A stretch of DNA of 12,523 bases from a virus. Its lineage: Duplodnaviria; Heunggongvirae; Uroviricota; Caudoviricetes. How positions within the stretch are numbered: the stretch's first letter is position 1; each line of letters begins with the position of its first letter. Shown here piece by piece: positions 1-12,523 of this stretch. Position numbers and translations under genes: made by a program. The notes below the pieces were generated by a model. It was not told the DNA's origin, ran no database searches, and worked only from the letters and a program-made list of their open reading frames with translations. The stretch is taken from positions 1 through 12,523 of IMG/VR virus record IMGVR_UViG_2541047958_000002; one strand, given 5' to 3'.

Positions 1-216
1 TTATTGGTTATCCGCTTTAGAAGCATTGACCTGATCTTCCCATGATGCGATCTCAGATTCCCGCCAGCGCTTAGGGTTGCCGGGAATCGTTGGTTTAGGG
101 AAGGGGCAGGTGAAGCTCGAAGGCATGCGCGCCGGTGTACTCCAAAAGTACAGCGTACTCCGGGAAATTTTGTATCGAGCCAGGATGTCACTGGTAAACA
201 AGATGCCGTCATTCAT
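1..216 (-). CDS. alpA: AlpA-family phage transcriptional regulator / excisionase-like DNA-binding protein (71 aa)
   Basis: Complete minus-strand ORF (stop at 1-3, ATG at 214-216). The product has an 'ISRSTLYFW' HTH-like segment and an 'FPKP...RWRESEI..WE' tail that match my recollection of AlpA/Phage_AlpA proteins. A GGAG lies about 9 nt upstream of the ATG on the minus strand. Family assignment is from memory, not a search. Confidence 0.7.
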   Translation of the reverse strand: MNDGILFTSDILARYKISRSTLYFWSTPARMPSSFTCPFPKPTIPGNPKRWRESEIASWEDQVNASKADNQ

Positions 217-233
217 TATTCTTTACTCCAGGC

Positions 234-260
234 AAAAAAATGCCCTCGCAATGGAGGGCA
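234..260 (-). terminator. Intrinsic terminator-like hairpin in the alpA 5' region (minus strand)
   Basis: Plus strand reads A7 (234-240) then TGCCCTC-gcaatg-GAGGGCA (241-260). On the minus strand this is a 7-bp GC-rich stem with a 6-nt loop followed directly by seven U. It sits 18-44 nt upstream of the alpA start codon. Confidence 0.5.
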
Positions 261-362
261 AATGGGGGATAACGTGGCAGTGCATTCGCACCCAATATCC
301 CATGCTTTGTCGATACCGATGTTTCTGGCGACGTTCGTGCTGTCAGCTGAAGATAGCGGGAT

Positions 363-899
363 GTGGCGGAATATGTCGGCGTTCAACATGCGCAGGCCGT
401 GAAGCTTTGTTATCGGATAGCAGACCTGTACGGCTTAACCTCACCAACTGGCAGCGAAACATCATTCACTTTCGACGCTGTTGAAGCTCGTGATTTCATT
501 GATGGCGGTTGGTCATGCCAGGAGTACGTGGAGCTTGAACGCTTTCAGGAAGCGATAACCAACCATACCGGTGACTCCAACAATATGGTTGAACCTGTAA
601 CGACGGCTTACAAATTGCCAGATGATTTTATTTGCATGCTTACTGGTAGAGCTAAATATCTTCGAGAAAAAGGAGAGATCAAATCACCTGAGCTTTTGGA
701 GCGAGCCGCTGCCGCGCTTCAGGGGGAAAGCGTTAATACCTCCTCCATTCCTAATGGATGGAAACTCGTTCCGATTGACCCAACAAAAGATATGTTGCGT
801 GCGGGGCAATCGGTGGTTGGGTTCTGGCTGAATACAGTGCATTGCTACTCGAAAATGCTCGCCGCTGCACCAGCAGCACCGCGGCAGGAGGTGAAGTGA
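363..899 (+). CDS. Hypothetical phage protein (up to 178 aa; start uncertain)
   Basis: Longest plus-strand ORF in this interval and co-directional with the downstream genes. The first start is GTG at 363; the in-frame ATG at 586 (MVEPVTT...) is an alternative. No family recognised. A terminator follows at 936-958. Confidence 0.45.
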   Translation: MAEYVGVQHAQAVKLCYRIADLYGLTSPTGSETSFTFDAVEARDFIDGGWSCQEYVELERFQEAITNHTGDSNNMVEPVTTAYKLPDDFICMLTGRAKYLREKGEIKSPELLERAAAALQGESVNTSSIPNGWKLVPIDPTKDMLRAGQSVVGFWLNTVHCYSKMLAAAPAAPRQEVK

Positions 900-935
900 C
901 GAACAAGATGACGAGAGTTACCATAGATATAAATC

Positions 936-958
936 AAGGCCCTTAGGGGCCTTTTATT
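936..958 (+). terminator. Rho-independent terminator downstream of the 363-899 ORF
   Basis: AAGGCCC-ttag-GGGCCTT stem-loop (936-953) running into TTTTATT (952-958). Confidence 0.6.
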
Positions 959-992
959 CTATGATAAACGGACTTTGTTTGAGAGTGACGCC

Positions 993-1319
993 ATGAAGCC
1001 CAAGAAGCTAAATGCTGAGCAGCAATACAAATTAGACCTTGAATTGGTCAAGAAGAAGCCTGCGAACCGGACCGAGGCAAAAGCCCATTTGGCCGCACAG
1101 TTACGGATCAGCAAGTACAAGACGCAGACCTCTTCCAAAATCCGCGTAGGCAGTTTTAAGGGGCGGAAGAAGGTACATTTCAGTAAGGCGGAACAAGCAG
1201 CCAGGGCAGCACTAAATAAAGCAAATGCCATTAGATTTTCCGAAGGGGAGGTCGAGTCCGTCGATACGGATAGAATCTCAGAAAGTAACAAACGCTGGCG
1301 CGGGAGAACTGCTGACTAA
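993..1319 (+). CDS. Hypothetical lysine-rich small protein (108 aa)
   Basis: ORF 975..1319 in the track begins at TTG; the ATG at 993 ([11 protein letters not shown]...) is the more plausible start. Basic, Lys/Ala-rich composition. Its stop overlaps the next start (TAATG at 1317-1321). Confidence 0.5.
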
Positions 1320-1573
1320 TGTCTGACTGGAATATTGCTGCAAAGCCGCAGGAAGAACGCGACAAGGTTAATGTTGACCTGGCAGCCTCCGGCGTGGCCT
1401 ACAAAGAGCGCCTGAATATGCCGGTTATCGCCGAGCAGGTAGCTCGTGAGCAACCAGAGCATCTACGAGAGTATTTCATGGATCGCGTGCGGCACTATCG
1501 CGAGCAGAGCGTTGCATTGCCTAAGGCATCTGATCCTCGCTACATTGAAATGACTGAGCAAAATGCAAAATAA
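1319..1573 (+). CDS. Hypothetical small protein (84 aa)
   Basis: ATG at 1319 overlaps the upstream stop (translational coupling). No overlapping ORF on the opposite strand is better. No family recognised. Confidence 0.5.
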
Positions 1574-1589
1574 ATTTCAGGAGATTCAA

Positions 1590-1850
1590 ATGGAAAATAG
1601 CATGAGCATCACAACGATTCTTGAAAGAGAAAGGGAGCTTGATGATCTTGTTAAGGTGTGCCTCGATGAGCTTGAGGTGATTGACATCCATGGACAGGTT
1701 TACTCAATTCCTCTTTCCCACCTAACGAACGCAGAGCAGGTGGTACATTGGGTCTGGAAGATTGCTGAGAGAGGTGATTTCGCCATGGATGTTGTTCGTA
1801 AATTTACTGAAGTTGCGTCCCATCATGTGGGGTTTGACGCTAAAAAATAA
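1590..1850 (+). CDS. Hypothetical small protein (86 aa)
   Basis: ORF 1563..1850 in the track; the internal ATG at 1590 is preceded by AGGAG (1578-1582) with about 7-nt spacing. No family recognised. Confidence 0.5.
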   Translation: MENSMSITTILERERELDDLVKVCLDELEVIDIHGQVYSIPLSHLTNAEQVVHWVWKIAERGDFAMDVVRKFTEVASHHVGFDAKK

Positions 1851-1920
1851 ATCGCCAAGGACCGATTTAATAGCTATACACATGTTTTACATTCCGCTCG
1901 CATCTTAACCAAATCTTTCT

Positions 1921-1929
1921 TGGTATAAT
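1921..1929 (+). promoter_or_regulatory. Candidate extended -10 promoter element (TGgTATAAT) upstream of the zinc-ribbon gene
   Basis: TGGTATAAT at 1921-1929 matches the extended -10 consensus TGnTATAAT. There is no convincing -35 at 16-18 bp, which is acceptable for extended -10 promoters. It lies about 40 nt upstream of the ATG at 1969. Confidence 0.4.
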
Positions 1930-1968
1930 GATTTTTTACAGGCGAATGACGTGTGAGGTCCGGGATTT

Positions 1969-2166
1969 ATGACTTGTGAAGTATGTAACAAACAACCCCT
2001 TGGACGAAGGGACCCGCCTCTTCCATGCATGGTCTTGCAAGGCGATAAATCCGTTAACTTCAGCCATCACGGACGCGAAGCAAACGAGCGTTATTACAAA
2101 TGCTCGGAATGCGGTCATGAGTGGATGAGAGAGACAGGAAATTGCGGCGAAGGCTGGATTCCTTAA
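1969..2166 (+). CDS. Small zinc-ribbon protein (65 aa), possibly an Ogr/Delta-like zinc-finger regulator
   Basis: ORF with GAGG about 10 nt upstream of the ATG. Cys pairs CEVC (res 3-6) and CSEC (res 45-48), with an 'ERYYKC' context before the second pair that resembles the 'ERYHQC' of P2 Ogr as I recall it. The spacing between pairs differs from Ogr, so the family call is tentative. Confidence 0.45.
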   Translation: MTCEVCNKQPLGRRDPPLPCMVLQGDKSVNFSHHGREANERYYKCSECGHEWMRETGNCGEGWIP

Positions 2167-2190
2167 CTATATATTGTCGCTATTCGCAAA

Positions 2191-2219
2191 TTGATTTTCT
2201 CAAATCATCCCGCCATAAT
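2191..2219 (+). promoter_or_regulatory. Candidate sigma70 promoter (-35 TTGATT, 17-bp spacer, -10 CATAAT)
   Basis: TTGATT at 2191-2196 and CATAAT at 2214-2219 with a 17-bp spacer. It would start a transcript running through the dyad elements at 2245-2343 into the ORF at 2370. Confidence 0.3.
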
Positions 2220-2244
2220 TAAGTCGCAGTCGGCCTGAACACCC

Positions 2245-2291
2245 GATTGTGACTTCTGCGCATTTAAGGGGACTTAAATGCGACCACAATC
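2245..2291. promoter_or_regulatory. 47-bp imperfect palindrome (nested inverted repeats) in the leader
   Basis: Outer arms GATTGTG (2245-2251) / CACAATC (2285-2291); inner 10-bp arms CGCATTTAAG (2259-2268) / CTTAAATGCG (2273-2282) around a 4-nt centre GGGA. No T-tract follows, so it is not a canonical terminator. It may be an operator or an RNA structure. Confidence 0.35.
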
Positions 2292-2313
2292 TGAAATCCT
2301 CACCTTGTCACAG

Positions 2314-2343
2314 ATGCAGAAATGCACCTGCGATTTTCTGCAT
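2314..2343. promoter_or_regulatory. Second dyad-symmetry element (9-bp arms, 12-bp spacer) just upstream of the RBS
   Basis: ATGCAGAAA (2314-2322) and its reverse complement TTTCTGCAT (2335-2343), separated by 12 nt. It ends 16 nt before the AGGAGG at 2360-2365. Confidence 0.35.
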
Positions 2344-2369
2344 TCTGCGGTTTCCGTTAAGGAGGCCGT

Positions 2370-2768
2370 ATGACTCTTCCAGTATCGGAGTATGGGAACG
2401 TCAATCACTGGTTGGCAAATGGTGGCGGCTGGTTCTTCAATCTCGACTATGACAAAGAAGTGCTGGCTAAGGCTCTGGTTCACAAAGCAGCTGAGCTGCC
2501 ACTCGTCATCGAGCTGGTTACCGCTGAGCGTAAAATCGTTATCTGCCACGCTGACTACCCGCATAACGAATATGCGTTCGATAAGCCCATCCCGAAAGAT
2601 ATGGTCATCTGGAATCGTGAGAGGGTTAAGTCCTGGCAGTTATACGTCAAGACAGTGGACATCGATGCTGACTCCGCGTCGGTCACTCTGTCCGTCACCA
2701 ACCCGCTGAACAACAACATCGGAAGGCTCTATGACCCAACGGAATATACCGGCCTGCAGTACCTCTGA
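2370..2768 (+). CDS. Lambda-type Ser/Thr protein phosphatase (PPase/PrpA family) homolog, N-terminally truncated and C-terminally divergent (132 aa); probable remnant
   Basis: Residues about 8-88 ('[22 protein letters not shown]...ELPLVIELV...VICHADYP...VIWNRER') match the middle of lambda phosphatase / E. coli PrpA as I recall them. The upstream GDxHG, GDxxDRG and GNHE metal-binding motifs are absent: the frame is closed by a TAA at 2358-2360 and there is no room upstream. The C-terminus lacks the GH motif. A strong AGGAGG (2360-2365) sits 4 nt before the ATG. Confidence 0.6.
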
Positions 2769-3147
2769 TTTTGCTCGGAAGGTGATCGGCGTGCCGTGGG
2801 CTAACCGGGCCTGCTCGTTCGATAGGGTCGACTGCTGGGGCTTGTGCGTGCTGTATTACCGGCACGTTCTCGGCATTGAACTGCACCAGACGCCGGACTA
2901 CGAAGCCGGTGAGGACTTCTTCACCTGCTATCAAAGTGATGTCGTTTTCTGGCACCCGGTGGATAAGCCGGTCGAGGGCGGGATATTCGTCGGGTACCGC
3001 GGCGCGCAACCGGCGCATGTTGGCCTGGTACTGAACCGGCAGGCGCTGCACTCGCGCGGCGAGAACGGAAGCGTACGCATGGACTCGTTGCTGGTCATTC
3101 AGCGGGCATTCACCAAAGTGGAGTTTTTCGAATATGGCGCTGGTTGA
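2731..3147 (+). CDS. NlpC/P60-family peptidase domain protein, phage tail protein K-like (138 aa; start uncertain)
   Basis: Contains 'DCWGL' (catalytic-Cys context of NlpC/P60, cf. DCSGL) and a later 'HVGLV' His motif. It overlaps the upstream ORF by 38 nt if the ATG at 2731 is used; GTG at 2791 preceded by GAAGGTGA is an alternative start. It is shorter than typical K proteins and has no JAB/MPN region. Confidence 0.55.
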
Positions 3148-5611
3148 GATATCGAATTTTCCAGGAACGCCTAAGCTGCGTTGCAGGGTGCCAAACGGCA
3201 CCCTTTTTTATGACTGGCTGGCGGCCAATGATGGTAACTTTCACCGCGATCTGCTGATCGTCCGCAACGGCGTAAAGTTGGGCGAAGATGATGAGCTGGC
3301 GTTTGAGCTATGCGAACTGGACACCGTCCAGATATTCGACCAGCCGAAGGGCATCATTGGCGACATTCTCAGCCCGATCTTCAAAGTTGTCGGCGCGGTA
3401 TTCTCTTTCCTTGCGCCAAAGCCGGCGATCGCCAATACAGGCGGCAACACGATTGACTCGCCAAACAATAGCCTGACCGGCCAGACGAATACGGCGCGCG
3501 TCTACAAAGCAAAACCGGACATCTACGGACAAATCCGTTCGTTCCCGGACCTGATTCAGGAGTCGCTTTTCGAATACGTGCGCCAGAGCGACACGGATGG
3601 CGGCCTGAAGTACGTTACTGAGTGGATGTGCATCGGGATCGGCAAATATGATTACGAGTCTGTGCGTTATTCAGAGTCCAGCCTAGGAAGTATGGCCGGT
3701 GCAGAGTTCCAGTTTTACCAGCCGGGTGAAGTGATCCCTACCATCAACGAAGGCTACGGGTTCGACGACGTGGATGGCCAGGAAGTGCCCGGGCAAAACG
3801 AATCGGATAATTTCCCGATCGAGACTGCTACGGCTACTACGGTTGTGAGCGGAACTTACTCCGGCGGGCAGATTGCGGTAAAAATTATCAAGCAGGCTGA
3901 GTTTGATTACTTCATGGGCCTGGTCCTGCCGCACGCCGTTACTTTTACGATTAACGTCACCTACAGCACGCCAACCGGCAACGTAACGCAGGATGTCGAT
4001 TTCTCCGGCACGCTGATATCGGCTGTCGAAACAAACGACGGCGCGGTGGTTAACCCGGTCCGGTGGTACACATTCACGATGAGGGATCTAATTGGCCCTC
4101 CTGACGTGCCGGCAACGGCGACTATTAACACGACGAAGTTCATCCTTAACGATAACGAAGCGCTAGTGGTAGGCCCGTTCTTCTCGCCGGTCGAATCTGC
4201 CCAGTTATGGCTGCACACTCAGGTGCAGCTGGGCGGCAAAAAGTCCGCTGACTGGAAGGTCACGATCTGGAAAATTGACGATTACTACAACCAGGTGCCG
4301 GGTACTCAGCAGACGTTCACGTATCATCAGGGGACGCCGCACAAATCATCGAGCGAAGTATTTTACCGTACCGATAAGCTGACGCCGACCGGCGGTTTCG
4401 GCAAGTACGCTATTAACTTCCAGCGCACAGATAACTCGAGTGATGCCTCTATCCTGAAGGTTGAGGAGATCCACTCGGTCAACGTCAGAACCAACGTCGT
4501 GCATCCAACCGATACGCTGGTGCGCGTGAAGGTAAGGGCGACGGAGAACGCCCTGGGCAGCCGTGACCGCAAGTACAACGCACTGGTGACGCGTCAGACC
4601 ATCAGTTACAACCTGACGACGCAATCGGTGGATTACACCCTGCGGGCCTCGCGCTCGTTCGCTGATGCAGTGGCGCATACCTGGCTGATTATGGGCGAGC
4701 AGCCGGTAAGTAGCATTGACCTGTACGGGCTGTACTCGATTGCCGAAAGTCTGCCGGATGAGCGCCTGGGTTACTTCGACTACACGTTTGACGACGAGAA
4801 CGATTCGTTGGGCGACAGGGTGCAGGCTATCTGCAATGCGGCCTCTGTCATTGCGTACTGGGACGATGGCGTGCTGACGTTTACTCGCGATCAGAAGGTT
4901 GAGTACCCGGCGGCCGTATTCAACCGGGCCAATATGAAGACGGACGAGTACAAAATGACGTACGAAGCCACTCTTCCTGGCGGCTATGACGGCGTGCAGG
5001 TGTCCTACGTTCATCCGACAACCAACAACAAGACGTACATCAACTACCGCGTGCTGAACGGCGCTATCGTCGAGCAGGAAGCGGAGAACCCGAACAAAAT
5101 CGATATAGTCGGCTTCCGTAACGAGTATCAGGCGCGGGAACGCGCGCTGCGCGAAACGAAGCGCCTTATCTACTCCCGGGTGAAGATGAACGCCAAAGTG
5201 TTTGAGGACGGGATCATGCAGGTCGGTAGCGTCGTGCAGATAGCGGATATCTACGACAGCAACCAGCAGCAGGGATACATCACAGGCCGCGCCGGGAATA
5301 GCTTTGATACAAGCGAGCCAATCGCGTTTACCGGCTCGATGTATGTCCTGGTGACCGACAGCCTGGGCAACCCGACTCTGCGCTATCCGGCGACGGCACG
5401 CGCCGACACGAAGTACGGATTCACCGCGGCAATACCCGACATTCAACTTAATATCTGGAACGGAGACACCGTGCAGCTCCCGTCGCGCTACCTCATAGCA
5501 ACGGTGGAGGAGCTGAACAGCCAACTATGGACGGTCAATAGCATCAAGCCGAACACAGATAACACGGTATCTCTGACCGTCGCGGAATACAGCGACGCCA
5601 TCTACCAATAA
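3134..5611 (+). CDS. Phage tail tip / host-specificity protein (825 aa) with a tail-assembly-protein-I-like N-terminal region and a J-like central region
   Basis: Long ORF whose ATG overlaps the upstream stop. The N-terminal about 150 aa ('...FLAPKPAIANTGGNTIDSP...YGQIR') resembles lambda gpI as recalled. Later segments ('DRVQAICNAASVIAYWDDGVLTFTRDQ', 'GFRNEYQARERALRETKRLIYSRVK...VGSVVQIADIYD') resemble conserved blocks of lambda host-specificity protein J. Codon composition matches the flanking genes. Confidence 0.75.
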   Translation: MALVEISNFPGTPKLRCRVPNGTLFYDWLAANDGNFHRDLLIVRNGVKLGEDDELAFELCELDTVQIFDQPKGIIGDILSPIFKVVGAVFSFLAPKPAIANTGGNTIDSPNNSLTGQTNTARVYKAKPDIYGQIRSFPDLIQESLFEYVRQSDTDGGLKYVTEWMCIGIGKYDYESVRYSESSLGSMAGAEFQFYQPGEVIPTINEGYGFDDVDGQEVPGQNESDNFPIETATATTVVSGTYSGGQIAVKIIKQAEFDYFMGLVLPHAVTFTINVTYSTPTGNVTQDVDFSGTLISAVETNDGAVVNPVRWYTFTMRDLIGPPDVPATATINTTKFILNDNEALVVGPFFSPVESAQLWLHTQVQLGGKKSADWKVTIWKIDDYYNQVPGTQQTFTYHQGTPHKSSSEVFYRTDKLTPTGGFGKYAINFQRTDNSSDASILKVEEIHSVNVRTNVVHPTDTLVRVKVRATENALGSRDRKYNALVTRQTISYNLTTQSVDYTLRASRSFADAVAHTWLIMGEQPVSSIDLYGLYSIAESLPDERLGYFDYTFDDENDSLGDRVQAICNAASVIAYWDDGVLTFTRDQKVEYPAAVFNRANMKTDEYKMTYEATLPGGYDGVQVSYVHPTTNNKTYINYRVLNGAIVEQEAENPNKIDIVGFRNEYQARERALRETKRLIYSRVKMNAKVFEDGIMQVGSVVQIADIYDSNQQQGYITGRAGNSFDTSEPIAFTGSMYVLVTDSLGNPTLRYPATARADTKYGFTAAIPDIQLNIWNGDTVQLPSRYLIATVEELNSQLWTVNSIKPNTDNTVSLTVAEYSDAIYQ

Positions 5612-5632
5612 GAACCGTCCCCGACCAACCAG

Positions 5633-5658
5633 ACCCGGCCACCGTGCCGGGTTTTTTT
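5633..5658 (+). terminator. Rho-independent terminator between the tail-tip gene and the tail-fiber gene
   Basis: ACCCGGC-caccgt-GCCGGGT stem (5633-5652) followed by seven T (5652-5658). The T-tract ends 11 nt before the ATG at 5670. Confidence 0.75.
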
Positions 5659-5669
5659 ATGGAATCAAT

Positions 5670-8102
5670 ATGGCTACGCAACCTACAAACTTGCCTGTTC
5701 CAAGCGAATCACCACGCGACCTGAAGTTCAACGCCGGGAAAATTGATGAATTTGTAACTTCCCTGGCTGAATGGTATGTGGACCGCTTCGGAATAAAGCA
5801 TTACACCATCGAAGGACTGAAGAATCTGGTACTGCAGCAGATTTATAATCTCGGCTGGAATCCGGTTGGAACATTCCAGGGCGGTGCAACTCTGACAGCG
5901 GCTGGTGACATCATCCAGGACACAAGCACGGGTGTATGGTATCGCTGGGATAACCTGGCAACACTGCCTAAAGTTGTTCCTGCTGGCTCAACTCCTGCAT
6001 CATCTGGTGGGATCGGAGAAGGTAAGTGGCTCGCCGTTGATGTGAGTGATGTGCTTAGAAAGGAGCTGGCTGAACCTGGTGGTGCTGGCATGATGGGTTA
6101 TGACGACTTTGAGTCTTATCAGGATGGTACTGTTGGCAGTGCCATTAAGGATCAGAACTTCAGAAAAAAAATAATCTACAAACTTCCATTTCAGTTCACT
6201 GGGTATTCTGATGCACTGGCGGCAATTGGAGCTGGAAGCATCATATACCCGCAGGGTGCTGACTATGATGATGATGGTCTACTCTTCATTAACTATGTGC
6301 CTAATGCTGGAGGGTCGCTTAGGGTAATAGTTGTTTATAACCAGGCAGGAGAGCAAGTAACGTGGTTTTATAGTCCAAACAGTAGTAATCAGTCTGTGGC
6401 TATATATGGCGGAAGCTCATCACGTAGATTGTATGACAGACGTCTTGGGGATGATTTTGTTTATTATTATGACATAACCACATTACCCGCAGCAGGTAGC
6501 ACGCTTTCAGGGCACACAATAACGACAATTCAGTCGGCTGGATCACATATGTGCATTGAGGGTAATTTACTCTTCTGCACATTAAACGCGACACCGATAG
6601 GAACATCGCAGTCGCAGACGGTTGTAAATTCGTACCGTGTTGATACTGGTGAGAAGCAGGGAACTATAAATGTCTCCCAGATGTTGACAGGGTTTGCAAC
6701 TCCAGAGCTTTCGCCAACCTACTATTACAGGGTATGGAAAATTCAAGGTTTGGCATACAAGAATGGAATCCTCCATATTGGGGTTGGTGGGAGCTATCGC
6801 CCTACATTAGATGATGCAAAATATCCTGTGCATGATTACGGCGTCCTCCGAGTGTCACTCTCTGGTGAGTTAATAGACCACTCTGTTGTGAAATCAGATA
6901 AGTTGATGACATATCTGGCATCAAACGGTTGCACCGTCTCAAGAACAGAGTCAGAGGGATGTTTCAAGCACCCTGACGGCACTATCCATTCAATTCTTAT
7001 TGGTGATATGGCTGAATCATCTCCTAGCACACCCAATGGCATTGTTATAATGAGGGAGTTTTCACGGGATGGATTTAACATGCTGGATGCCGCTTCCGGA
7101 TATTGTCCTCTCCCAACGTATGGATTTAATCGACTTATGCGATCTGAGCAGGGGGCATTGTGCGATCCCGTATTAAACACAGTATTTAGTAGCGTAACTC
7201 AGATTCTTGATTTAATGGCTTCATTAAACTTAACTGAGTTCTCATGGTTTTCAACCATAGCACCTTCACTAACCACAATACCCGGCCTTAATTACGTAAT
7301 AGGACAAATCTACCATGTTACCAATCTTAACAATGGAGGATTTGTTATTGAATCTTCTGGTACTGCGCTTGGGATGGAAGTGTATAGCGTAGTTGGAAGT
7401 CTTGGATCATGGACTGCTACAAGGCGTTCCATTTCAGGTTCAAAGATTAATATTAATAATGCAGGTAGCTTAGGACAAATTTCATTTACAGCATCTACAG
7501 GTAAAGAAGTTGGTATTGCCCAAATAAGCTATACAGGGACTTCTACACCTCTTGTTATCGGCTCTGGAGGAACTTTAAACCCTAATGCTATTTTCTTCTT
7601 CACAAATCCGACAGTGACAAGTGAAAGTGGGGGAACTCAATCTTTTCAGATTTACAATAATCAGGTACTACCTGGCGTCTCTAGCGCGCAGTCTAACGGG
7701 AGTGCGTCATTTAAATGGACTCAGTTCTACGCCGATTCTGGTTCCATTAACACATCTGACAGAAGGAAGAAGACAGATTTCGAGGATATAAGTGAAGCCG
7801 AAAAGCGTGTAGCTATCAAGATTAAGGGAATGATTTGTCGGTACAGAATGAAGGATGCGGTAGCTATTAAAGGCGATGGCGCAAGATATCATATAGGTGC
7901 AATTGTTCAGGATGTTATCTCTGCGTTCGAGGATGAAGGACTAGACCCCATGCTTTACGGTATGGTTTGTTATGATAAGTGGGATAAGAAGGAACCAATA
8001 TATGATGAAAATGGTGCTATGATATTCTCAGGTTGCGAAGCCGGTGATGGTTACTCTTTAAGATATGATGAGATGTTATGTTTCATTATCTCAGCCATTT
8101 GA
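5670..8102 (+). CDS. Tail fiber / tailspike protein (810 aa) with a C-terminal intramolecular chaperone (peptidase S74-type) self-cleaving domain
   Basis: The N-terminal about 150 aa carry a 'YRWDNLATLPKVVPAGSTPASSGGIGEGKW' block that I recall from endosialidase-type and related tail fibers. The C-terminal about 115 aa ('TSDRRKK...ARYHIGAIVQDVISAF...MVCYDKW') match the Ser-x4-Lys autoproteolytic chaperone domain. The central 500 aa are unassigned and AT-rich. Confidence 0.85.
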   Translation: MATQPTNLPVPSESPRDLKFNAGKIDEFVTSLAEWYVDRFGIKHYTIEGLKNLVLQQIYNLGWNPVGTFQGGATLTAAGDIIQDTSTGVWYRWDNLATLPKVVPAGSTPASSGGIGEGKWLAVDVSDVLRKELAEPGGAGMMGYDDFESYQDGTVGSAIKDQNFRKKIIYKLPFQFTGYSDALAAIGAGSIIYPQGADYDDDGLLFINYVPNAGGSLRVIVVYNQAGEQVTWFYSPNSSNQSVAIYGGSSSRRLYDRRLGDDFVYYYDITTLPAAGSTLSGHTITTIQSAGSHMCIEGNLLFCTLNATPIGTSQSQTVVNSYRVDTGEKQGTINVSQMLTGFATPELSPTYYYRVWKIQGLAYKNGILHIGVGGSYRPTLDDAKYPVHDYGVLRVSLSGELIDHSVVKSDKLMTYLASNGCTVSRTESEGCFKHPDGTIHSILIGDMAESSPSTPNGIVIMREFSRDGFNMLDAASGYCPLPTYGFNRLMRSEQGALCDPVLNTVFSSVTQILDLMASLNLTEFSWFSTIAPSLTTIPGLNYVIGQIYHVTNLNNGGFVIESSGTALGMEVYSVVGSLGSWTATRRSISGSKININNAGSLGQISFTASTGKEVGIAQISYTGTSTPLVIGSGGTLNPNAIFFFTNPTVTSESGGTQSFQIYNNQVLPGVSSAQSNGSASFKWTQFYADSGSINTSDRRKKTDFEDISEAEKRVAIKIKGMICRYRMKDAVAIKGDGARYHIGAIVQDVISAFEDEGLDPMLYGMVCYDKWDKKEPIYDENGAMIFSGCEAGDGYSLRYDEMLCFIISAI

Positions 8103-8302
8103 AAAATAACGATGACCTTCCAATGTTAAAACATTGATTTGTGCTGTTTTTTATTCATTGTTGCAAGGTCATTGTATATTATTTGAATGGGTTTAGACTC
8201 TAGTATTTCGAATTGTTTAATGGTTTTAACTAATCATGAGTATGGATGGCAACAGCAAAATCGTGTTAGGATAGGAAAAAATCGATTTCAGGACTCAAAT
8301 CA

Positions 8303-8336
8303 ATGAATGACTCACTTCAATGACTCACTTCAATGG
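8303..8336 (+). repeat. Tandem 13-bp direct repeat (ATGACTCACTTCA x2, with partial flanking copies)
   Basis: ATGA / ATGACTCACTTCA (8307-8319) / ATGACTCACTTCA (8320-8332) / ATGG. The unit length is not a multiple of 3, so successive ATGs fall in all three frames. Confidence 0.6.
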
Positions 8337-8498
8337 CTAACTCGAATTGTTGGCGTATATTGTCTGATAGATATGATAATGATTCTGTTGGGTATCAACG
8401 AGTGGTCGAAGTGGGTCATTTTCTCAAATTGCATCATGATTGCTATATGGGGATGGTCTGAGCGTAACAATTACAGGGGCTCAAGTAATGGAGAGTGA
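8307..8498 (+). CDS. Hypothetical small hydrophobic protein (63 aa, two predicted transmembrane segments)
   Basis: ORF in AT-rich DNA where chance ORFs are rarer. Hydrophobic stretches 'IVGVYCLIDMIMILLGI' and 'WVIFSNCIMIAIWGW'. Its ATG is the first copy of the 13-bp repeat. The RBS is weak. Speculative. Confidence 0.3.
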   Translation: MTHFNDSLQWLTRIVGVYCLIDMIMILLGINEWSKWVIFSNCIMIAIWGWSERNNYRGSSNGE

Positions 8499-8709
8499 AG
8501 AGTTTTTAGCTAGCCTCAAGCCTGGAGAAAAATGGTTGGCTGAAGGGGTGGTAAGAAGTAGAAAAGAAGGTGCCTGGAGTGTTATCCGTATATCTGATAA
8601 CGATAGCCAATGGGAGGCTACCTTCATGGGAAGAACATTGCCGGTGCTTTTCAGATCTAAAGAGTTGGCACTAATCGCTTTACTTGAACTATCTGTATGC
8701 CACGACTAA
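8488..8709 (+). CDS. Hypothetical small protein (73 aa)
   Basis: ORF 8440..8709 in the track begins at TTG; the internal ATG at 8488 is preceded by AGGGG (8475-8479). Its stop is followed by the bidirectional terminator. No family recognised. Confidence 0.4.
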   Translation: MESEEFLASLKPGEKWLAEGVVRSRKEGAWSVIRISDNDSQWEATFMGRTLPVLFRSKELALIALLELSVCHD

Positions 8710-8711
8710 AA

Positions 8712-8731
8712 GCGGCGTAAATTTACGCCGC
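8712..8731. terminator. Bidirectional intrinsic terminator between convergent genes
   Basis: Perfect 20-nt palindrome GCGGCGTAAATTTACGCCGC (8712-8731). It lies 3 nt after the plus-strand stop (8707-8709) and 8 nt after the minus-strand stop (8739-8741). A/T runs flank both sides; the U-tract is better on the minus strand. Confidence 0.55.
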
Positions 8732-8738
8732 ATAAATA

Positions 8739-9710
8739 TTAGACTACTCTTCGCAAAATCGGTATTGCAGTAAATATTTTGACAATGATAATTGAAGATG
8801 CAATGTAAAATACTGCCGCCAGAGGAATGCCCCATACATAATTTGTAATTGGCAGGTACTTCCATGAAGTGAAAATAATTAATGGGTGAACTAGGTAGAT
8901 GCCAAATGCATGCTTTGAAATTATTTTTATTATTGGGTTTGTTAAGTTAGATATGTTCTTAGCATAACCAATGCAAGCAAATGTCGTAGCTATCGCCGTA
9001 ATGGCTATAATCGGGCTGAAGTTCTTCAAGCTCATTCCTTGATATTCGCCATGAACTATCCCTTTGTTAACATAAATGGTAATAACGGAAAGTGTCAATG
9101 ATAGGATAGCAAATACAATTCTGTTCTTAATTATCAAGTCTTCCTTACGTGCAGCTATGTATCCTGCAAAAACATAGAGCATTAAATAACTTGCAAATGG
9201 AACGCTTATCTTTGGAACGGGTATTCCTATTGCATTAAGCTCCGGGTATAAGGATGTGCTGTAAAACAGAATTGCGAATATCAATAGGCTATAGCGTGTT
9301 CTTATCTCTCTACATCCCATAACTATCATTGGAACAAAAAGATAAATTGCAATGTAATCGTACATAAACCAAAGGTGTATGCTTGATGGTTTCATAGGGC
9401 TAAAACTATCTATGCCTGCATTTTTAAAAATTATCAAATATGCTGCGTAAATTATCCACCAAAACGCCAGTGGAATTACAAGGAGATTTATTCCTTTAAG
9501 GATGAAGCCTTCGAATTCAATTTTTTTGTTAGCATAGAGAAAGCCGGTTATGACAATGAATATACCAATGCATTGTTTCGAAATTGCACTATAAACATTG
9601 GCCCACTCCCAGTCAGGCGCGAGTTTGGCCCCAACAGGCCCGGCGCTGGCATGCAGTAGAACTACCAATATTATTGCTATGAAACGTGCAAAGACCACTC
9701 CATAATTCAT
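8739..9710 (-). CDS. Integral-membrane acyltransferase, acyltransferase-3 (AT3) family, probable polysaccharide O-acetyltransferase (323 aa)
   Basis: Minus-strand ORF with GGAG 7-8 nt upstream of the ATG. Strongly hydrophobic multi-pass protein with an N-terminal 'FARFIAIILVVLLHA' motif typical of AT3 proteins (cf. 'LRAIAVLxVVxFH'). AT-rich codon usage. Confidence 0.8.
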   Translation of the reverse strand: MNYGVVFARFIAIILVVLLHASAGPVGAKLAPDWEWANVYSAISKQCIGIFIVITGFLYANKKIEFEGFILKGINLLVIPLAFWWIIYAAYLIIFKNAGIDSFSPMKPSSIHLWFMYDYIAIYLFVPMIVMGCREIRTRYSLLIFAILFYSTSLYPELNAIGIPVPKISVPFASYLMLYVFAGYIAARKEDLIIKNRIVFAILSLTLSVITIYVNKGIVHGEYQGMSLKNFSPIIAITAIATTFACIGYAKNISNLTNPIIKIISKHAFGIYLVHPLIIFTSWKYLPITNYVWGIPLAAVFYIASSIIIVKIFTAIPILRRVV

Positions 9711-9753
9711 GAATGTCTCCAGTTGACGGGCTTACGCCCGTCTTAGTTGATTA

Positions 9754-11712
9754 TTATTTATTAAGCACACTTAAGATCTTATCTTTAAATCCGTTCACTG
9801 CCATCTGTGAGCCATCTTTTGATAAATGCCCCCCATCTGAATACATGATTTTGTCATTGAATATTGAACGGCAGGTTCCGTTAGAACAAAACACTTCATA
9901 CGGGTCCATGTAGTAAGTATTTCTCATTGACTGGGCAGCCTTCTTTAACATCTGATTTAGTTTGTACGAGTGAGCAGTTCTCTCTCTTACATTCAATTGT
10001 TCAGAACACGGACCTGTCGCAAATGATGGTCTAGTGATACAAGCCACCACACCATTTTTATCGCCAACCCGAGGAGGAGAACCGATAATAATCAAAGGCC
10101 TTCCTCCTGTGTCTTTTCTTAGTAACTTAAGTTGCTCGATAACATATGAATAATATTCATCTTTATCCTTAAAGATGATTTTTTCGCCAGTTTTACGGTT
10201 GGTAAGAACATCTTTTGATGTATCCCAAGAGTGCGAAATAATGAGAGGCTTACTGTTACCTTTAAGCAAGTTGTACAAGTTGCCATATTGCCCGGAGCAT
10301 AGATTGTCCGGCCCGGTCCCTGGCGTTCGGATTGAGTCTCTGCTTATTAAGCACCCATGAGCAAACAAGGTGTCAGCTTTAATATGGTTATCTTTAAAGA
10401 AATTATCCAGGCCATATGCATACTGATTGGCATAACTATCGCCAGCCACTATTACTGATGATTCCTTTACATTTAAATCACCTATTGTTTTTTTGTAGCC
10501 ATAATCGTGACCACCATATTGCTCAAAGTGATATTGGCCTGCATTCTCGGCCAAGGTTACGTATTTTTCATTAACACGCCATGTCATGCCGTTACTTTCA
10601 TAGGAGTATTTTCCTGCGAAAATCAAGATGGCAATGATTGAACCTACGCACGAATATACAGTAACAATTTTAAATTTATCGAGTTTAACGTTATGGAGTC
10701 GGAATGTTTTCTCAATACAGTAAAACGTGATCAGGGAAAAAATTGCTGTGATTATTATCATGGCAATTTTATCAATGATATCTGGCGTAGTTGCAATATA
10801 GTAGTTATAAAAAACTATCACGGGCCAATGTACAAGATACAAAGAGTAACTGATTAACCCTATGTATATGGCAACTTTGTTATCTGTTACAACTGAAACT
10901 TTAGCATTGCCAGCGTAAATGGCCATGCCCGCGCCAATACATGGGATTAATGCCATTACACCTGGGAATTGAGTTGTTTCATTGTACATAAACATGCTGA
11001 TAATAATAATTGCTATACCAGTCATGTATAGTACATTAAGAATCATACCTTTTGGCTGTTTTAATCTTTCAAGGAATACGACTATAGCCCCAACAGCAAA
11101 TTCGAATGCTCTGGATGTTGTTAGAAAATATGACTTATTAGAATCTGAAGGTAGTAGTGATTGTGAGTAAATAATGCTCACTACAAACATTATACTGATT
11201 ATAGCGATAATGCCATTTTTTGATTTTAATTTGTACGCCAACGTTAACAATAAAGGCCATACGAGATAGAATTGCTCTTCGACAGACAAAGACCATGTAT
11301 GTAGCAATGGTTTTGTGATTGATGAAGCGTCAAAGTAGTCACTACTTAACCAAAAGAAGAAGTTTGATAAAGAAATGACTGCAAATATGAGAGACTTTCC
11401 AAAATCAATCATTTGCTGCGGTGAAAATAAGAGCATGGCAGCAATTAAGCTCAGAGCACTTACAAAAAATAACGCTGGAAGAAGCCGCAATGCACGACGG
11501 GTATAAAATTGACCAAAAGTAAAAGCGTTTGATTCAAGTTGCCCAGTAATATTTCTGGTTATCAAATAGCCGCTGATAACAAAGAAAACGTCTACGCCAA
11601 CGAAACCACCAGGGAAGCTAAGCCCTATGTGGAAGAAAATCACGCCAAGGACGGCTATTGCACGTAATCCGTCAATGTCTCCACGATACTTTTTTGCGAC
11701 AACTAAGTTCAC
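9754..11712 (-). CDS. OafA-like O-acetyltransferase: N-terminal AT3 membrane domain fused to a C-terminal SGNH hydrolase-like domain (652 aa)
   Basis: Minus-strand ORF with a GTG start. The N-terminus 'DIDGLRAIAVLGVIFFHIG...VGVDVFFVISGYLIT...TWSLSVEEQFY' matches AT3 signature blocks as recalled for Salmonella OafA. The C-terminal soluble domain has SGNH-like blocks ('VAGDSYANQ', 'DGGHLS'). It sits 43 nt upstream of the 323-aa AT3 gene on the same strand, so the two are likely an operon. Confidence 0.85.
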   Translation of the reverse strand: MNLVVAKKYRGDIDGLRAIAVLGVIFFHIGLSFPGGFVGVDVFFVISGYLITRNITGQLESNAFTFGQFYTRRALRLLPALFFVSALSLIAAMLLFSPQQMIDFGKSLIFAVISLSNFFFWLSSDYFDASSITKPLLHTWSLSVEEQFYLVWPLLLTLAYKLKSKNGIIAIISIMFVVSIIYSQSLLPSDSNKSYFLTTSRAFEFAVGAIVVFLERLKQPKGMILNVLYMTGIAIIIISMFMYNETTQFPGVMALIPCIGAGMAIYAGNAKVSVVTDNKVAIYIGLISYSLYLVHWPVIVFYNYYIATTPDIIDKIAMIIITAIFSLITFYCIEKTFRLHNVKLDKFKIVTVYSCVGSIIAILIFAGKYSYESNGMTWRVNEKYVTLAENAGQYHFEQYGGHDYGYKKTIGDLNVKESSVIVAGDSYANQYAYGLDNFFKDNHIKADTLFAHGCLISRDSIRTPGTGPDNLCSGQYGNLYNLLKGNSKPLIISHSWDTSKDVLTNRKTGEKIIFKDKDEYYSYVIEQLKLLRKDTGGRPLIIIGSPPRVGDKNGVVACITRPSFATGPCSEQLNVRERTAHSYKLNQMLKKAAQSMRNTYYMDPYEVFCSNGTCRSIFNDKIMYSDGGHLSKDGSQMAVNGFKDKILSVLNK

Positions 11713-11825
11713 GAGAGAAGCCTACTAAAGTTAAAACGCGCATTTTAGTAGCTATCAGGACATGAAAAAAGAGAAAACTAGTAAATTATCAATAAACTAT
11801 ATCTACGTTCCTGAGCGAATGTGTT

Positions 11826-11834
11826 GGTGATCAC
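11826..11834. promoter_or_regulatory. GGTGATCAC palindromic motif, copy 1 (contains a Dam GATC site)
   Basis: Exact 9-mer containing the 8-bp perfect palindrome GTGATCAC. It sits in the divergent control region between the acyltransferase operon and the LexA-box promoter. Confidence 0.3.
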
Positions 11835-11882
11835 AAAACATGAGCAACTAATACAATTGTTTGCAATCCTTCAGACACATAA

Positions 11883-11891
11883 GGTGATCAC
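11883..11891. promoter_or_regulatory. GGTGATCAC palindromic motif, copy 2 (contains a Dam GATC site)
   Basis: Identical 9-mer 57 bp from copy 1, with similar A-rich 3' flanks (aaaaca / ggaaaaa). Confidence 0.3.
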
Positions 11892-11929
11892 GGAAAAATA
11901 GTATTGCCATAATTTAGAGGATAGATGTG

Positions 11930-11945
11930 CTGTATTTATATACAG
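11930..11945. promoter_or_regulatory. LexA (SOS) box, CTGT-N8-ACAG
   Basis: CTGTATTTATATACAG matches the E. coli LexA consensus CTGTATATATATACAG at 15 of 16 positions. It overlaps a candidate -10 (TATATA 11937-11942); TTTAGA at 11913-11918 is a possible -35. A T7 run follows. Confidence 0.6.
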
Positions 11946-11979
11946 TTTTTTTGGGGCTATATGCCGCATCGTTCAAATA

Positions 11980-12201
11980 TTGAGATCGCCTTCATGGGCC
12001 TCGATTGTGCATGAAAGGTCAGGCCGCAGGATTGTGAAAACTGCTGATTTTGTTCAGGAACTTCTAAAGGTCAGCTGGGACTTCAGCATGGAAGAGGCGA
12101 ACCTTTGGATAGCAAGGTACACAACCTGCTTCAAAGACATCACTCCTGATCACGGGGAGAACAAAACCTGGTTCATGTACAACCCGAATGGAGGGCTTTG
12201 A
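11980..12201 (+). CDS. Hypothetical small protein (73 aa; start uncertain, TTG in the track)
   Basis: ORF lying between the LexA box and the UmuD'-like ORF. Its stop (12199-12201) is 1 nt from the next ATG. No canonical ATG start with an RBS was found, so the call is weak. Confidence 0.3.
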   Translation: MRSPSWASIVHERSGRRIVKTADFVQELLKVSWDFSMEEANLWIARYTTCFKDITPDHGENKTWFMYNPNGGL

Positions 12202-12202
12202 T

Positions 12203-12523
12203 ATGGGGTTCCCAAGTCCAGCAAGGGATTACATCGAAAGTAAGCTTAATGTGAATGTTATATGCGGAGTCACCACTAACAGCCTAGTGATTGAGACATC
12301 GCAAGGATTTGCTGTGATAGAAAAGGGCATGAAGCCATCGCCAGACAGTACCTACCTGATTTCGTATTCAGGAGGTTGTCACTTTGCCAAACGTAGAGGC
12401 GATGCGCTGATAACGATAGATGGTGAAGTACTTGAAGGAGAGGTTCTGGATGAGGTGGATGTGAAGGGAATTCTGACCTACCTGATTAACCGGGCGGTGG
12501 ATGATGATAACCCGGTGATTTAA
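12203..12523 (+). CDS. UmuD'-like protein (S24 LexA/UmuD superfamily), beginning at the GFPSPA cleavage-site motif (106 aa; track ORF starts at 12188)
   Basis: The ATG at 12203 is preceded by GGAGGG (12190-12195). The product starts 'MGFPSPARDYIE', matching the 'C/GFPSPAxDY' auto-cleavage junction of UmuD/MucA. Downstream blocks 'STYLISYSGGCH' and 'RRGDALITIDGEV' align loosely with 'ATYFVKASGDSM' and 'HGDIVIAAVDGEF' of UmuD. The protein is shorter than UmuD. The stop is at the window end. Confidence 0.5.
   Translation: MGFPSPARDYIESKLNVNVICGVTTNSLVIETSQGFAVIEKGMKPSPDSTYLISYSGGCHFAKRRGDALITIDGEVLEGEVLDEVDVKGILTYLINRAVDDDNPVI

Follow-up and report, generated by a model that had tools for sequence, protein, structure and literature searches.

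The 12,523-nt stretch of DNA analysed here (positions 1 to 12,523 of IMG/VR virus record IMGVR_UViG_2541047958_000002; henceforth the window) represents the right-hand end of a prophage of Escherichia, a temperate siphovirus, in which two small open reading frames (ORFs), ORF1 and ORF2, follow the tail-fibre gene and the first of them starts inside a 13-bp tandem repeat. The reading we favour, and in which we place roughly even confidence, is that the two ORFs belong to a prophage cargo cassette, that the repeat is a lineage-fixed duplication and not a hypermutable tract, that this duplication lowers the translation of ORF1, and that ORF1 encodes an accessory membrane protein.

The start region of ORF1, read directly from positions 8300-8340, is TCA-ATGA-(ATGACTCACTTCA)x2-ATGG. 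Two perfect tandem copies of the 13-bp unit lie on the plus strand at 8307-8319 and 8320-8332 (identified with Tandem Repeats Finder, by alignment with loci L013-L016 and by a regular-expression census), followed by a partial copy, ATGG, at 8333-8336. An initial annotation, made from the letters of the window, had described exactly this arrangement, including the presence of ATGs in all three frames, and on both counts it was accurate. Tandem Repeats Finder reported a single array in the entire 12.5-kb window (8306-8335, period 13, 2.3 copies, 100% matches). The exact 13-mer was found only at the two adjacent sites, and allowing up to 2 mismatches yielded 4 matches against 0.3 expected, so the array is not a product of chance; an imperfect inverted copy of the unit is located at 8407-8419. 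ATGs occur in all three frames by simple arithmetic, because the 13-nt unit contains one ATG: those at 8303, 8307, 8320 and 8333 fall into frames 2, 0, 1 and 2, respectively. ORF1 (8307-8498, plus strand) opens at the second of these. The first, ATG 8303, lies outside the ORF1 frame in the window, a point on which the initial annotation needs correcting, and opens a mini-ORF of 6 codons (8303-8323, plus strand; MNDSLQ*) whose TGA stop overlaps ATG 8320.

Gain or loss of one repeat copy had been predicted to shift the frame that is read downstream, which could make the repeat a slippage-based on/off switch. When we reconstructed the locus in silico with 0-6 copies, however, ORF1 stayed open, with an in-frame ATG at every copy number of at least 1. 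Specifically, with one copy it is the first ATG that lies in the ORF1 frame, while from two copies upwards the penultimate unit consistently supplies the in-frame ATG (giving MTHFNDSLQWL...); the remaining ATGs in the series lead to nothing longer than a 42-aa ORF, the others having 6 or 9 codons. As each unit brings its own ATG, the gain or loss of units cannot close ORF1 or open another long frame, and a change in copy number moves only the position of the in-frame ATG.

Comparing copy number across homologous loci, a check that the initial annotation had itself put forward, revealed two states only, each of them fixed within a lineage. We defined lineages from fetched contigs encoding ORF1 or ORF2 proteins. 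Lineage A (the window, L003, L005, L006, L009, L017 and L018) is a group of seven sequences, all with two copies, whose other members match the window at 99.96-100% identity over 5.6-10 kb; these near-identical loci, which originate from different samples, show no variation in copy number. The sister lineage B (L013, L014, L015, L016 and L024) shows 93.6-96.6% identity to the window across the sequence that they have in common, has different tail fibres and a gtrABC cargo, and carries a single copy, TCAATGAATGACTCACTTAAGTGGCTAAC, in 5 of 5 loci; within it, the tail genes of L016 are more divergent from the window (~78%). One-copy loci read ATGAATGACTCACTTAAGTGG, i.e., MNDSLKW... (proteins P0001 and P0010; 60 aa), and start at the ATG equivalent to 8303. 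Beyond the 13-bp difference, one- and two-copy alleles also differ by two substitutions at the 3' end of the unit (CAA vs AAG). Lineage C (L004, L007, L008, L010, L011, L012 and E. coli PK5 and CUPF12) is a tRNA-Asn island that is ~97.5% identical to the window from 8356 on; at a breakpoint in 8347-8356, all 5' sequence, including the repeat and the ORF1 start, has been swapped for a truncated integrase fragment.

These data bear directly on whether the repeat is a slipped-strand contingency tract that reversibly switches ORF1 or the choice of frame. Several features are those expected of such a tract: the length of the unit is not divisible by three, the array sits exactly at the start of ORF1, related loci show two copy-number states, and the neighbouring genes modify a surface antigen, a class of function that is often phase-variable. 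We nevertheless consider this explanation extremely unlikely. The in-frame ATG of ORF1 survives at every copy number of at least one, and the alternative frames offer mini-ORFs of 6 or 9 codons and, at most, a 42-aa ORF whose frame shows no selection. Moreover, there are only 2.3 copies and no variation among either the seven near-identical loci (the window included) or the five one-copy loci, and the two substitutions that separate the two states mark them as old, fixed alleles and not as interconverting phases. Repeat number determines the switching rates of repeat tracts (review PMC11868660), and two 13-nt copies are far below the repeat numbers of hypermutable tracts. The proposed on/off switch thus founders on its low copy number, on the absence of variation within lineages and on an ATG that is always in frame.

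If the duplication does not switch ORF1, it may still affect how well ORF1 is translated. The ORF1-ORF2 module has a conserved leader (8262-8302, plus strand) with a Shine-Dalgarno-like AGGA at 8290-8293, which is mostly unpaired in the RNA partition function and lies 9 nt from ATG 8303 and 13 nt from ATG 8307. L016 has another tailspike (756 aa) ahead of the module and becomes similar to the window from ~8262 on, ~43 nt past the stop of that gene. The start of ORF1 is predicted to fold into a long, imperfect mRNA hairpin (8305-8421, plus strand), in which 8305-8363 pairs with 8367-8421 and which spans the first 38 codons of ORF1. Its minimum free energy is -42.5 kcal/mol (fold of 8285-8430; z = -3.3), none of 200 dinucleotide shuffles was as stable, and permuting synonymous codons of the window sequence produced an equally stable fold in 8 of 500 cases. 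Eleven of its 48 pairs are G.U, so the hairpin is specific to the plus-strand RNA. The fold of the start region alone (8270-8365) is unremarkable (z = -0.14), meaning that the structure needs its downstream arm.

The repeat units themselves form the 5' arm of this hairpin, copy 1 pairing with 8408-8421 (GAAGUGGGUCAUUU) and copy 2 with 8400-8407 (GAGUGGUC). ATG 8307 is located inside a 14-bp basal stem, directly after which comes UUUUCUC. Pair probabilities in the basal stem were 0.91-1.0 (8307-8318 with 8408-8419, in three sequence contexts), with a weaker terminal G.U pair (8305-8421; 0.34-0.52). Correspondingly, the probability of being unpaired in the two-copy allele was 0.01 for ATG 8307 and 0.57-0.78 for ATG 8303. 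One-copy alleles retain the hairpin (-32 to -34 kcal/mol) with their in-frame ATG at the edge of the stem, where the A and U of the start codon are unpaired with a probability of 0.74-0.98. In the same sequence background, the duplication stabilises the hairpin by ~7 kcal/mol (from -35.9 to -42.5). Between lineages, the C8318-G8408 pair of lineage A is an A-U pair in lineage B and one further pair changes from G-C to G-U, with no pair broken; it is possible that the C/G vs A/T difference at 8318/8408 arose by template switching within the quasipalindrome. We also considered a quasipalindrome template switch as a one-step source of the duplication itself, and rejected it because the second unit repeats the first exactly and is not the complement of the downstream arm. 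Taken as a model, the hairpin would be a reasonable candidate for a translational restraint on ORF1.

In the reading that we favour, these features would fit together as follows. The 13-bp repeat would be the product of a single mutational event that became fixed in the lineage of the window. One-copy relatives would start ORF1 at the ATG equivalent to 8303, 9 nt past AGGA and at the open edge of the hairpin. The extra 13 bp would have put ATG 8303 out of frame, and ORF1 would still be open in the window because a pre-existing overlapping ATG (within ATGAATG) became the in-frame one. That ATG, 8307, is 13 nt from AGGA and would be buried in a basal stem strengthened by the second copy. From this we infer a lower level of ORF1 expression, with ribosomes diverted into 6-codon out-of-frame ORFs; the worse Shine-Dalgarno spacing (13 vs 9 nt), the buried start and the decoy mini-ORFs would probably be the reasons. 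ORF2 would keep a ribosome-binding site of its own. A more ambitious version, which we regard as a very long shot, holds that the 13-nt unit and the hairpin jointly gate the translation of a small, dose-sensitive membrane protein, a new effector of the exclusion or toxin-like kind, with copy number serving as a heritable, slowly reversible rheostat and not as a frameshift switch. One copy would then be the "on" state (ATG at the open stem edge, good spacing) and two or more copies the "low" state (ATG in a longer stem, decoy mini-ORFs).

The product that would be restrained in this way is a small, hydrophobic, two-helix protein of 63 aa (60 aa in one-copy alleles). Kyte-Doolittle hydropathy peaks at 2.66 (residues 20-30) and 2.45 (residues 37-47), with hydrophobic segments at approximately residues 14-30 and 36-50 preceding a polar C-terminal tail (SERNNYRGSSNGE) that has no net positive charge. 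AlphaFold2 models the protein as two helices (H2-27 and H32-60) folded into a hairpin, at a predicted local distance difference test score (pLDDT) of 78. The initial annotation's description of a 63-aa two-helix hydrophobic ORF therefore holds on both analyses, and so do its observations that two small ORFs overlap after the tail fibre (by 11 nt) and that they lie in AT-rich DNA: the proportion of G and C is 0.33-0.44 over 8000-8750, compared with 0.53-0.58 at 5000-5750 in the tail-tip gene.

Substitution patterns provide evidence that this frame encodes a protein. In the non-overlapping part of ORF1, the window and L013 differ by 5 synonymous and 0 non-synonymous substitutions, all five of which are non-synonymous in the other two frames; the comparison with L016 gave 5 synonymous and 2 non-synonymous substitutions. 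Read in the other two frames, the substitutions seen in these two comparisons include 0-1 synonymous changes and are nearly all non-synonymous. We calculated that observing 5 out of 5 synonymous changes under neutrality has a probability of ~4e-4 (assuming ~20% of sites to be synonymous). As this is unlikely under neutrality, purifying selection has acted on the ORF1 frame but not on the 42-aa frame. Wherever the start of ORF1 is present, in the window and eleven further loci, the ORF is intact (12 of 12). On the strength of the sequence comparison, ORF1 is probably a real gene.

An opposing explanation is that ORF1 is not, or is no longer, functional in the two-copy allele, that the hairpin with its UUUUCUC is mainly a terminator or stabiliser at the end of the late transcript of the fibre gene, and that the duplication represents neutral decay in a defective prophage. 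Gene finders skip the 63-aa ORF, its in-frame ATG is buried and poorly spaced, a 14-bp stem followed by a U-rich run is what such an element could look like, ORF1 of L016 starts only ~43 nt past the tailspike stop without a separate terminator, and other parts of the prophage have suffered a large deletion and a frameshift. By contrast, the substitutions in the ORF1 frame indicate past purifying selection on the protein, the ORF is unbroken wherever its start is present, and a terminator scan did not call the long hairpin. On balance we judge this explanation unlikely. The transcription signals of the region are as follows. The GC-rich hairpin GCGGCGTAAATTTACGCCGC (8712-8731, minus strand) is common to the convergent genes. 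It had been described as a bidirectional terminator, a description that does not hold: its T-run is on the minus strand only, and the one gene for which the scan called it an intrinsic terminator is that of the AT3 acyltransferase. A consensus scan for promoters (weak evidence either way) placed the sole plus-strand promoter-like site inside ORF1, at 8350-8377, and detected no minus-strand promoter-like site in 7900-9000; nor did the same interval contain a match to Rfam at E <=1. A weak AT-rich hairpin (CAATGTTAAAACATTG) at 8121-8155, just past the fibre stop, is followed a few bases on by a T-run (GCTGTTTTTTATT); it was not called by the terminator scan, and could be the end of the late transcript in the lineage of the window.

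ORF2 (8488-8709, plus strand) is 73 aa long when read from its ATG (a mechanical ORF list extends it to 8440-8709, from a TTG) and is annotated in E. coli PK5 as hypothetical protein WP_021579245.1, an accession for which a literature search returned no match. Its 11-nt overlap with ORF1 reads ATGGAGAGTGA, and its ATG is preceded, at a distance of 9 nt, by an AGGGG. The AlphaFold2 model is of a soluble protein with the element order alpha-beta4-alpha (pLDDT 77; predicted template modelling score 0.65). Substitutions relative to the relatives of the window number 4-6 synonymous and 3-5 non-synonymous. An exhaustive phmmer search detected a distant homologue, P0005 (71 aa, 52-55% identical), and given this homologue, the 73-aa ORF reported by the initial annotation looks genuine. 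Four giant repeat proteins (with FG-GAP and SpaA repeats) that came up in the same search were dismissed as artefacts, their scores being summed from many weak repeat matches. In metagenomic contigs L019-L022, the P0005 gene lies 79 nt past an SGNH-type tailspike gene, without ORF1, and is followed by the same 79-aa gene as in the window; it is preceded by a GC-rich hairpin and a GAGG ribosome-binding site. This placement after a tailspike gene without ORF1 indicates that ORF2 is the older, backbone gene and ORF1 a lineage-restricted addition. We thus picture ORF2 as an older, soluble alpha/beta gene that directly follows the tailspike gene in distant relatives, upstream of which ORF1, a 60-63-aa helical-hairpin protein presumably of the inner membrane, would have been added in one narrow lineage, overlapping the ORF2 start.

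Both proteins are rare. In a word-indexed search of 5.8 billion protein clusters we found 1 cluster for ORF1 and 3 for ORF2, all at least 95% identical. Scans for a conserved 24-mer in JGI metagenome, species-representative genome and IMG/VR viral contigs gave no match, and the same was true of ORF2 alignment scans of contig collections and of tblastn searches with the ORF1 and ORF2 proteins against 50,697 phage records. Family searches with both ORFs gave only sub-threshold matches (Pfam 2TM at E 0.09, a PADLOC CorA-like profile at E 0.019 and one PHROG at E 0.076), with no match in NCBIfam. Three fold searches with the ORF2 model gave no significant neighbour; among them, Foldseek comparison with the PDB returned nothing at E <=0.001, and the best match in BFVD was an uncharacterised protein (E 0.034).

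What ORF1 might do can be approached by analogy. In phage HK97, a moron located in the tail operon encodes gp15, a small protein of the inner membrane that blocks DNA entry (PMC3594210). By such analogy we infer that ORF1 may be a prophage-expressed accessory protein acting in the cytoplasmic membrane, and our most likely guess, made with low confidence, is that it would protect against superinfection, as small phage membrane proteins encoded among tail genes do; tight translational control by a hairpin would suit a dose-sensitive membrane protein. T4 Imm is a further example of a small membrane superinfection-exclusion protein. Two traits of morons can be seen at the locus itself, namely that ORF1 is missing between the tailspike gene and the ORF2 homologue in L019-L022, while the acyltransferase/gtr cargo is also variable, and that its base composition is distinct from that of the neighbouring tail-tip gene.

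The same small size, two hydrophobic helices and stable predicted hairpin over the start codon could also describe a type-I-toxin-like peptide, whose mRNA would be kept inert by the 5' hairpin; the duplication would then be a mutation that attenuates the toxin, and ORF2 either unrelated or a modulator at the protein level. The location in a prophage, the loss of the ORF1 5' end in sequences that keep ORF2, and a structure more stable than most synonymous recodings (8 of 500 reach it) are in agreement with this. We consider it decidedly improbable, however, as we found neither an antisense promoter or terminator nor an Rfam match (a novel small RNA is still possible), with 60 aa and two helices ORF1 exceeds the size of most type I toxins, the hairpin leaves the Shine-Dalgarno sequence accessible, translational overlap with a second ORF is atypical of type I systems, and PADLOC offered no real match. 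A further alternative is that ORF1 and ORF2 together form a toxin-antitoxin or abortive-infection pair, consisting of a membrane effector and a cytosolic partner. Their 11-nt overlap suggests coupled translation, and both are small and lie in a cargo slot beside defence-like, receptor-modifying genes. The pattern of loss argues against ORF2 being a toxin neutralised by ORF1, and overall we think this pairing very unlikely.

A number of observations weigh against the cargo-cassette reading that we favour. The two-copy loci are in effect one clone, and their uniformity rules out only fast switching; the presumed direction of the 13-bp indel rests on only two clades, whose alleles also differ by two substitutions. 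Support for the hairpin is modest: in one-copy alleles z is only -1.7 and 7, 19 and 78 of 500 synonymous permutations are as stable, and the lone compensatory pair is not significant (109/500). The consensus scan placed no promoter-like site between the fibre stop and ORF1 (8103-8306). The 63-aa form of ORF1 is absent from the gene-finder predictions in a collection of 15 billion proteins, and the 60-aa form was predicted in no more than three assemblies. In the island lineage the 5' end of ORF1 has gone and ORF2 and the acyltransferases persist, and ORF1 is therefore dispensable to the host. Finally, neither homology nor fold comparison provided evidence for any function of ORF1 or ORF2.

The wider setting of the two ORFs is that of a variable slot. 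In 5' to 3' order, the window encodes an NlpC/P60 tail protein, an 825-aa tail-tip protein and an 810-aa fibre with an S74 chaperone domain, followed by ORF1, ORF2 and two convergent O-antigen-type acyltransferases: an AT3 acyltransferase (8739-9710, minus strand), which is the immediate neighbour of ORF2, and an AT3-SGNH (OafA-type) acyltransferase (9754-11712, minus strand). The last genes of the window are a small gene of the 79-aa type and a umuD-like gene. The tail genes are ~84% identical to those of Enterobacter phage CobraSix, in which the order is likewise tailspike, variable ORFs and UmuD-like, and by this gene order ORF1 and ORF2 occupy a variable cargo slot, bounded by the tail-fibre gene on one side and the LexA-controlled umuD-like genes on the other. 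The cargo between ORF2 and the 79-aa gene alternates by lineage between AT3 plus AT3-SGNH (the type of the window) and AT3 plus gtrABC; the latter type (L013, L015, L016 and L024) consists of a 328-aa AT3, gtrA, gtrB and a Glucos_trans_II glucosyltransferase. Upstream of the ORF1-ORF2 module we found no fewer than three distinct fibre or tailspike genes, encoding proteins of 810 aa (with S74), 811 aa and 756 aa (carrying a GDSL lipase domain). The final ~200 nt of the window's fibre gene (7900-8107) share 90% identity with a fibre in other E. coli prophages (L002: JML285, NZ_AP024114.1 1441003-1446689); in that setting a convergent acyltransferase comes next and then a lysis cassette (two holins, a GH19 endolysin and DUF2514), with neither ORF1 nor ORF2.

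Several observations concern the state and regulation of the prophage as a whole. A fragment of the lambdoid NinI Ser/Thr phosphatase (2212-2700; 91% identical to HK225 and 89% to phi80) directly abuts the CobraSix-like tail genes at ~2626. The prophage appears to have lost everything between the nin region and the distal tail genes, and is therefore defective. The 79-aa gene (11961-12201, plus strand; 79 aa in relatives, with the RefSeq label "DNA polymerase V") has a 1-nt insertion near 12001 (TTCATGGGCC vs TTCA-GGGCC in L007 and L013) and is therefore frameshifted in the lineage of the window. Judging by this frameshift and by the fusion of the NinI fragment to tail genes, the prophage is visibly decaying. 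Just upstream of the 79-aa and umuD-like genes, CTGTATTTATATACAG at 11930-11945 fits the CTGT-N8-ACAG form of a LexA (SOS) box; this LexA-box-like site is conserved in L013, and in L007 its second half-site is ACAT. Upstream of the acyltransferase operon, a palindrome-containing motif, GGTGATCAC, occurs twice (11826-11834 and 11883-11891), 57 bp apart, each copy containing one Dam GATC site. Dam-dependent phase variation is known for phage gtr operons, and paired GATC motifs upstream of acyltransferases are reminiscent of it. As for lineage C, the tRNA-Asn/mtfA island (L001; PK5 NZ_CP074024.1 1886587-1893505) has kept no more than the right end of this phage type, comprising the 3' remnant of ORF1, ORF2, the two acyltransferase genes, the 79-aa gene and the S24 peptidase gene, and a truncated integrase Arm domain is joined to this end; PK5 additionally has an IS5 that interrupts the 323-aa acyltransferase. 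The island looks like a domestication of the O-antigen-modifying cargo.

If the favoured reading is true, its first message is one of caution, in that a non-triplet repeat at a start codon can resemble a phase switch and yet be unable to close the frame and not vary. There remains a modest value in a conserved small gene pair without a family, one member of which encodes a putative two-helix membrane protein, in a slot that also holds O-antigen-modifying enzymes; phages often store host-protecting genes in such slots. The predicted leader hairpin is a new point of this analysis, and offers a concrete hypothesis for how expression of a small membrane protein is restrained.

The locus can be compared with several known systems, each of which it resembles in part. 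Simple sequence repeat contingency loci of Neisseria, Haemophilus and Campylobacter likewise carry tandem repeats of a non-triplet unit where a coding region begins, close to genes that alter the cell surface. By contrast, the array described here has only two long units and no polymorphism among near-identical strains, ORF1 is never closed, and the alleles are lineage-fixed with extra substitutions. The mRNAs of type I toxins (hok, tisB, zorO), whose 5' regions are folded and inert to translation, resemble ORF1 in that a short hydrophobic ORF has its start codon in a stable long-range stem (predicted here), and differ in that we found no antisense RNA or Rfam family, that the Shine-Dalgarno sequence is free, that ORF1 is larger with two helices, and that a downstream ORF overlaps it.

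Dual-start holins offer another comparison, lambda S having its sdi stem-loop and class II pinholins being ~70 aa long with two transmembrane helices. The likeness lies in a small two-helix membrane protein with close alternative ATGs and RNA structure at the initiation region; unlike in these holins, the ATGs of the window are in different frames, no endolysin or spanin gene is adjacent in the window, and no holin family matches. Serotype-conversion cassettes (AT3 Oac-type, AT3-SGNH OafA-type and gtrABC) are immediate neighbours in the same variable slot. ORF1 and ORF2, however, lie on the opposite strand and have no similarity to the enzymes, and ORF2 is also present without such a cassette.

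Finally, the comparison with moron-encoded exclusion proteins has differences of its own: ORF1 shows no sequence or profile similarity to the HK97 gp15/YebO, Cor and Sie families (Pfam, PHROG, NCBIfam and PADLOC), and unlike HK97 gp15 it has two helices and an overlapping partner ORF, while the scan did not demonstrate a promoter or terminator of its own. Nevertheless, like HK97 gp15 (YebO-like), ORF1 is the gene of a small hydrophobic protein in AT-rich DNA, located among or after the tail genes of a temperate phage, and like moron exclusion genes it is missing from relatives that keep the flanking genes.

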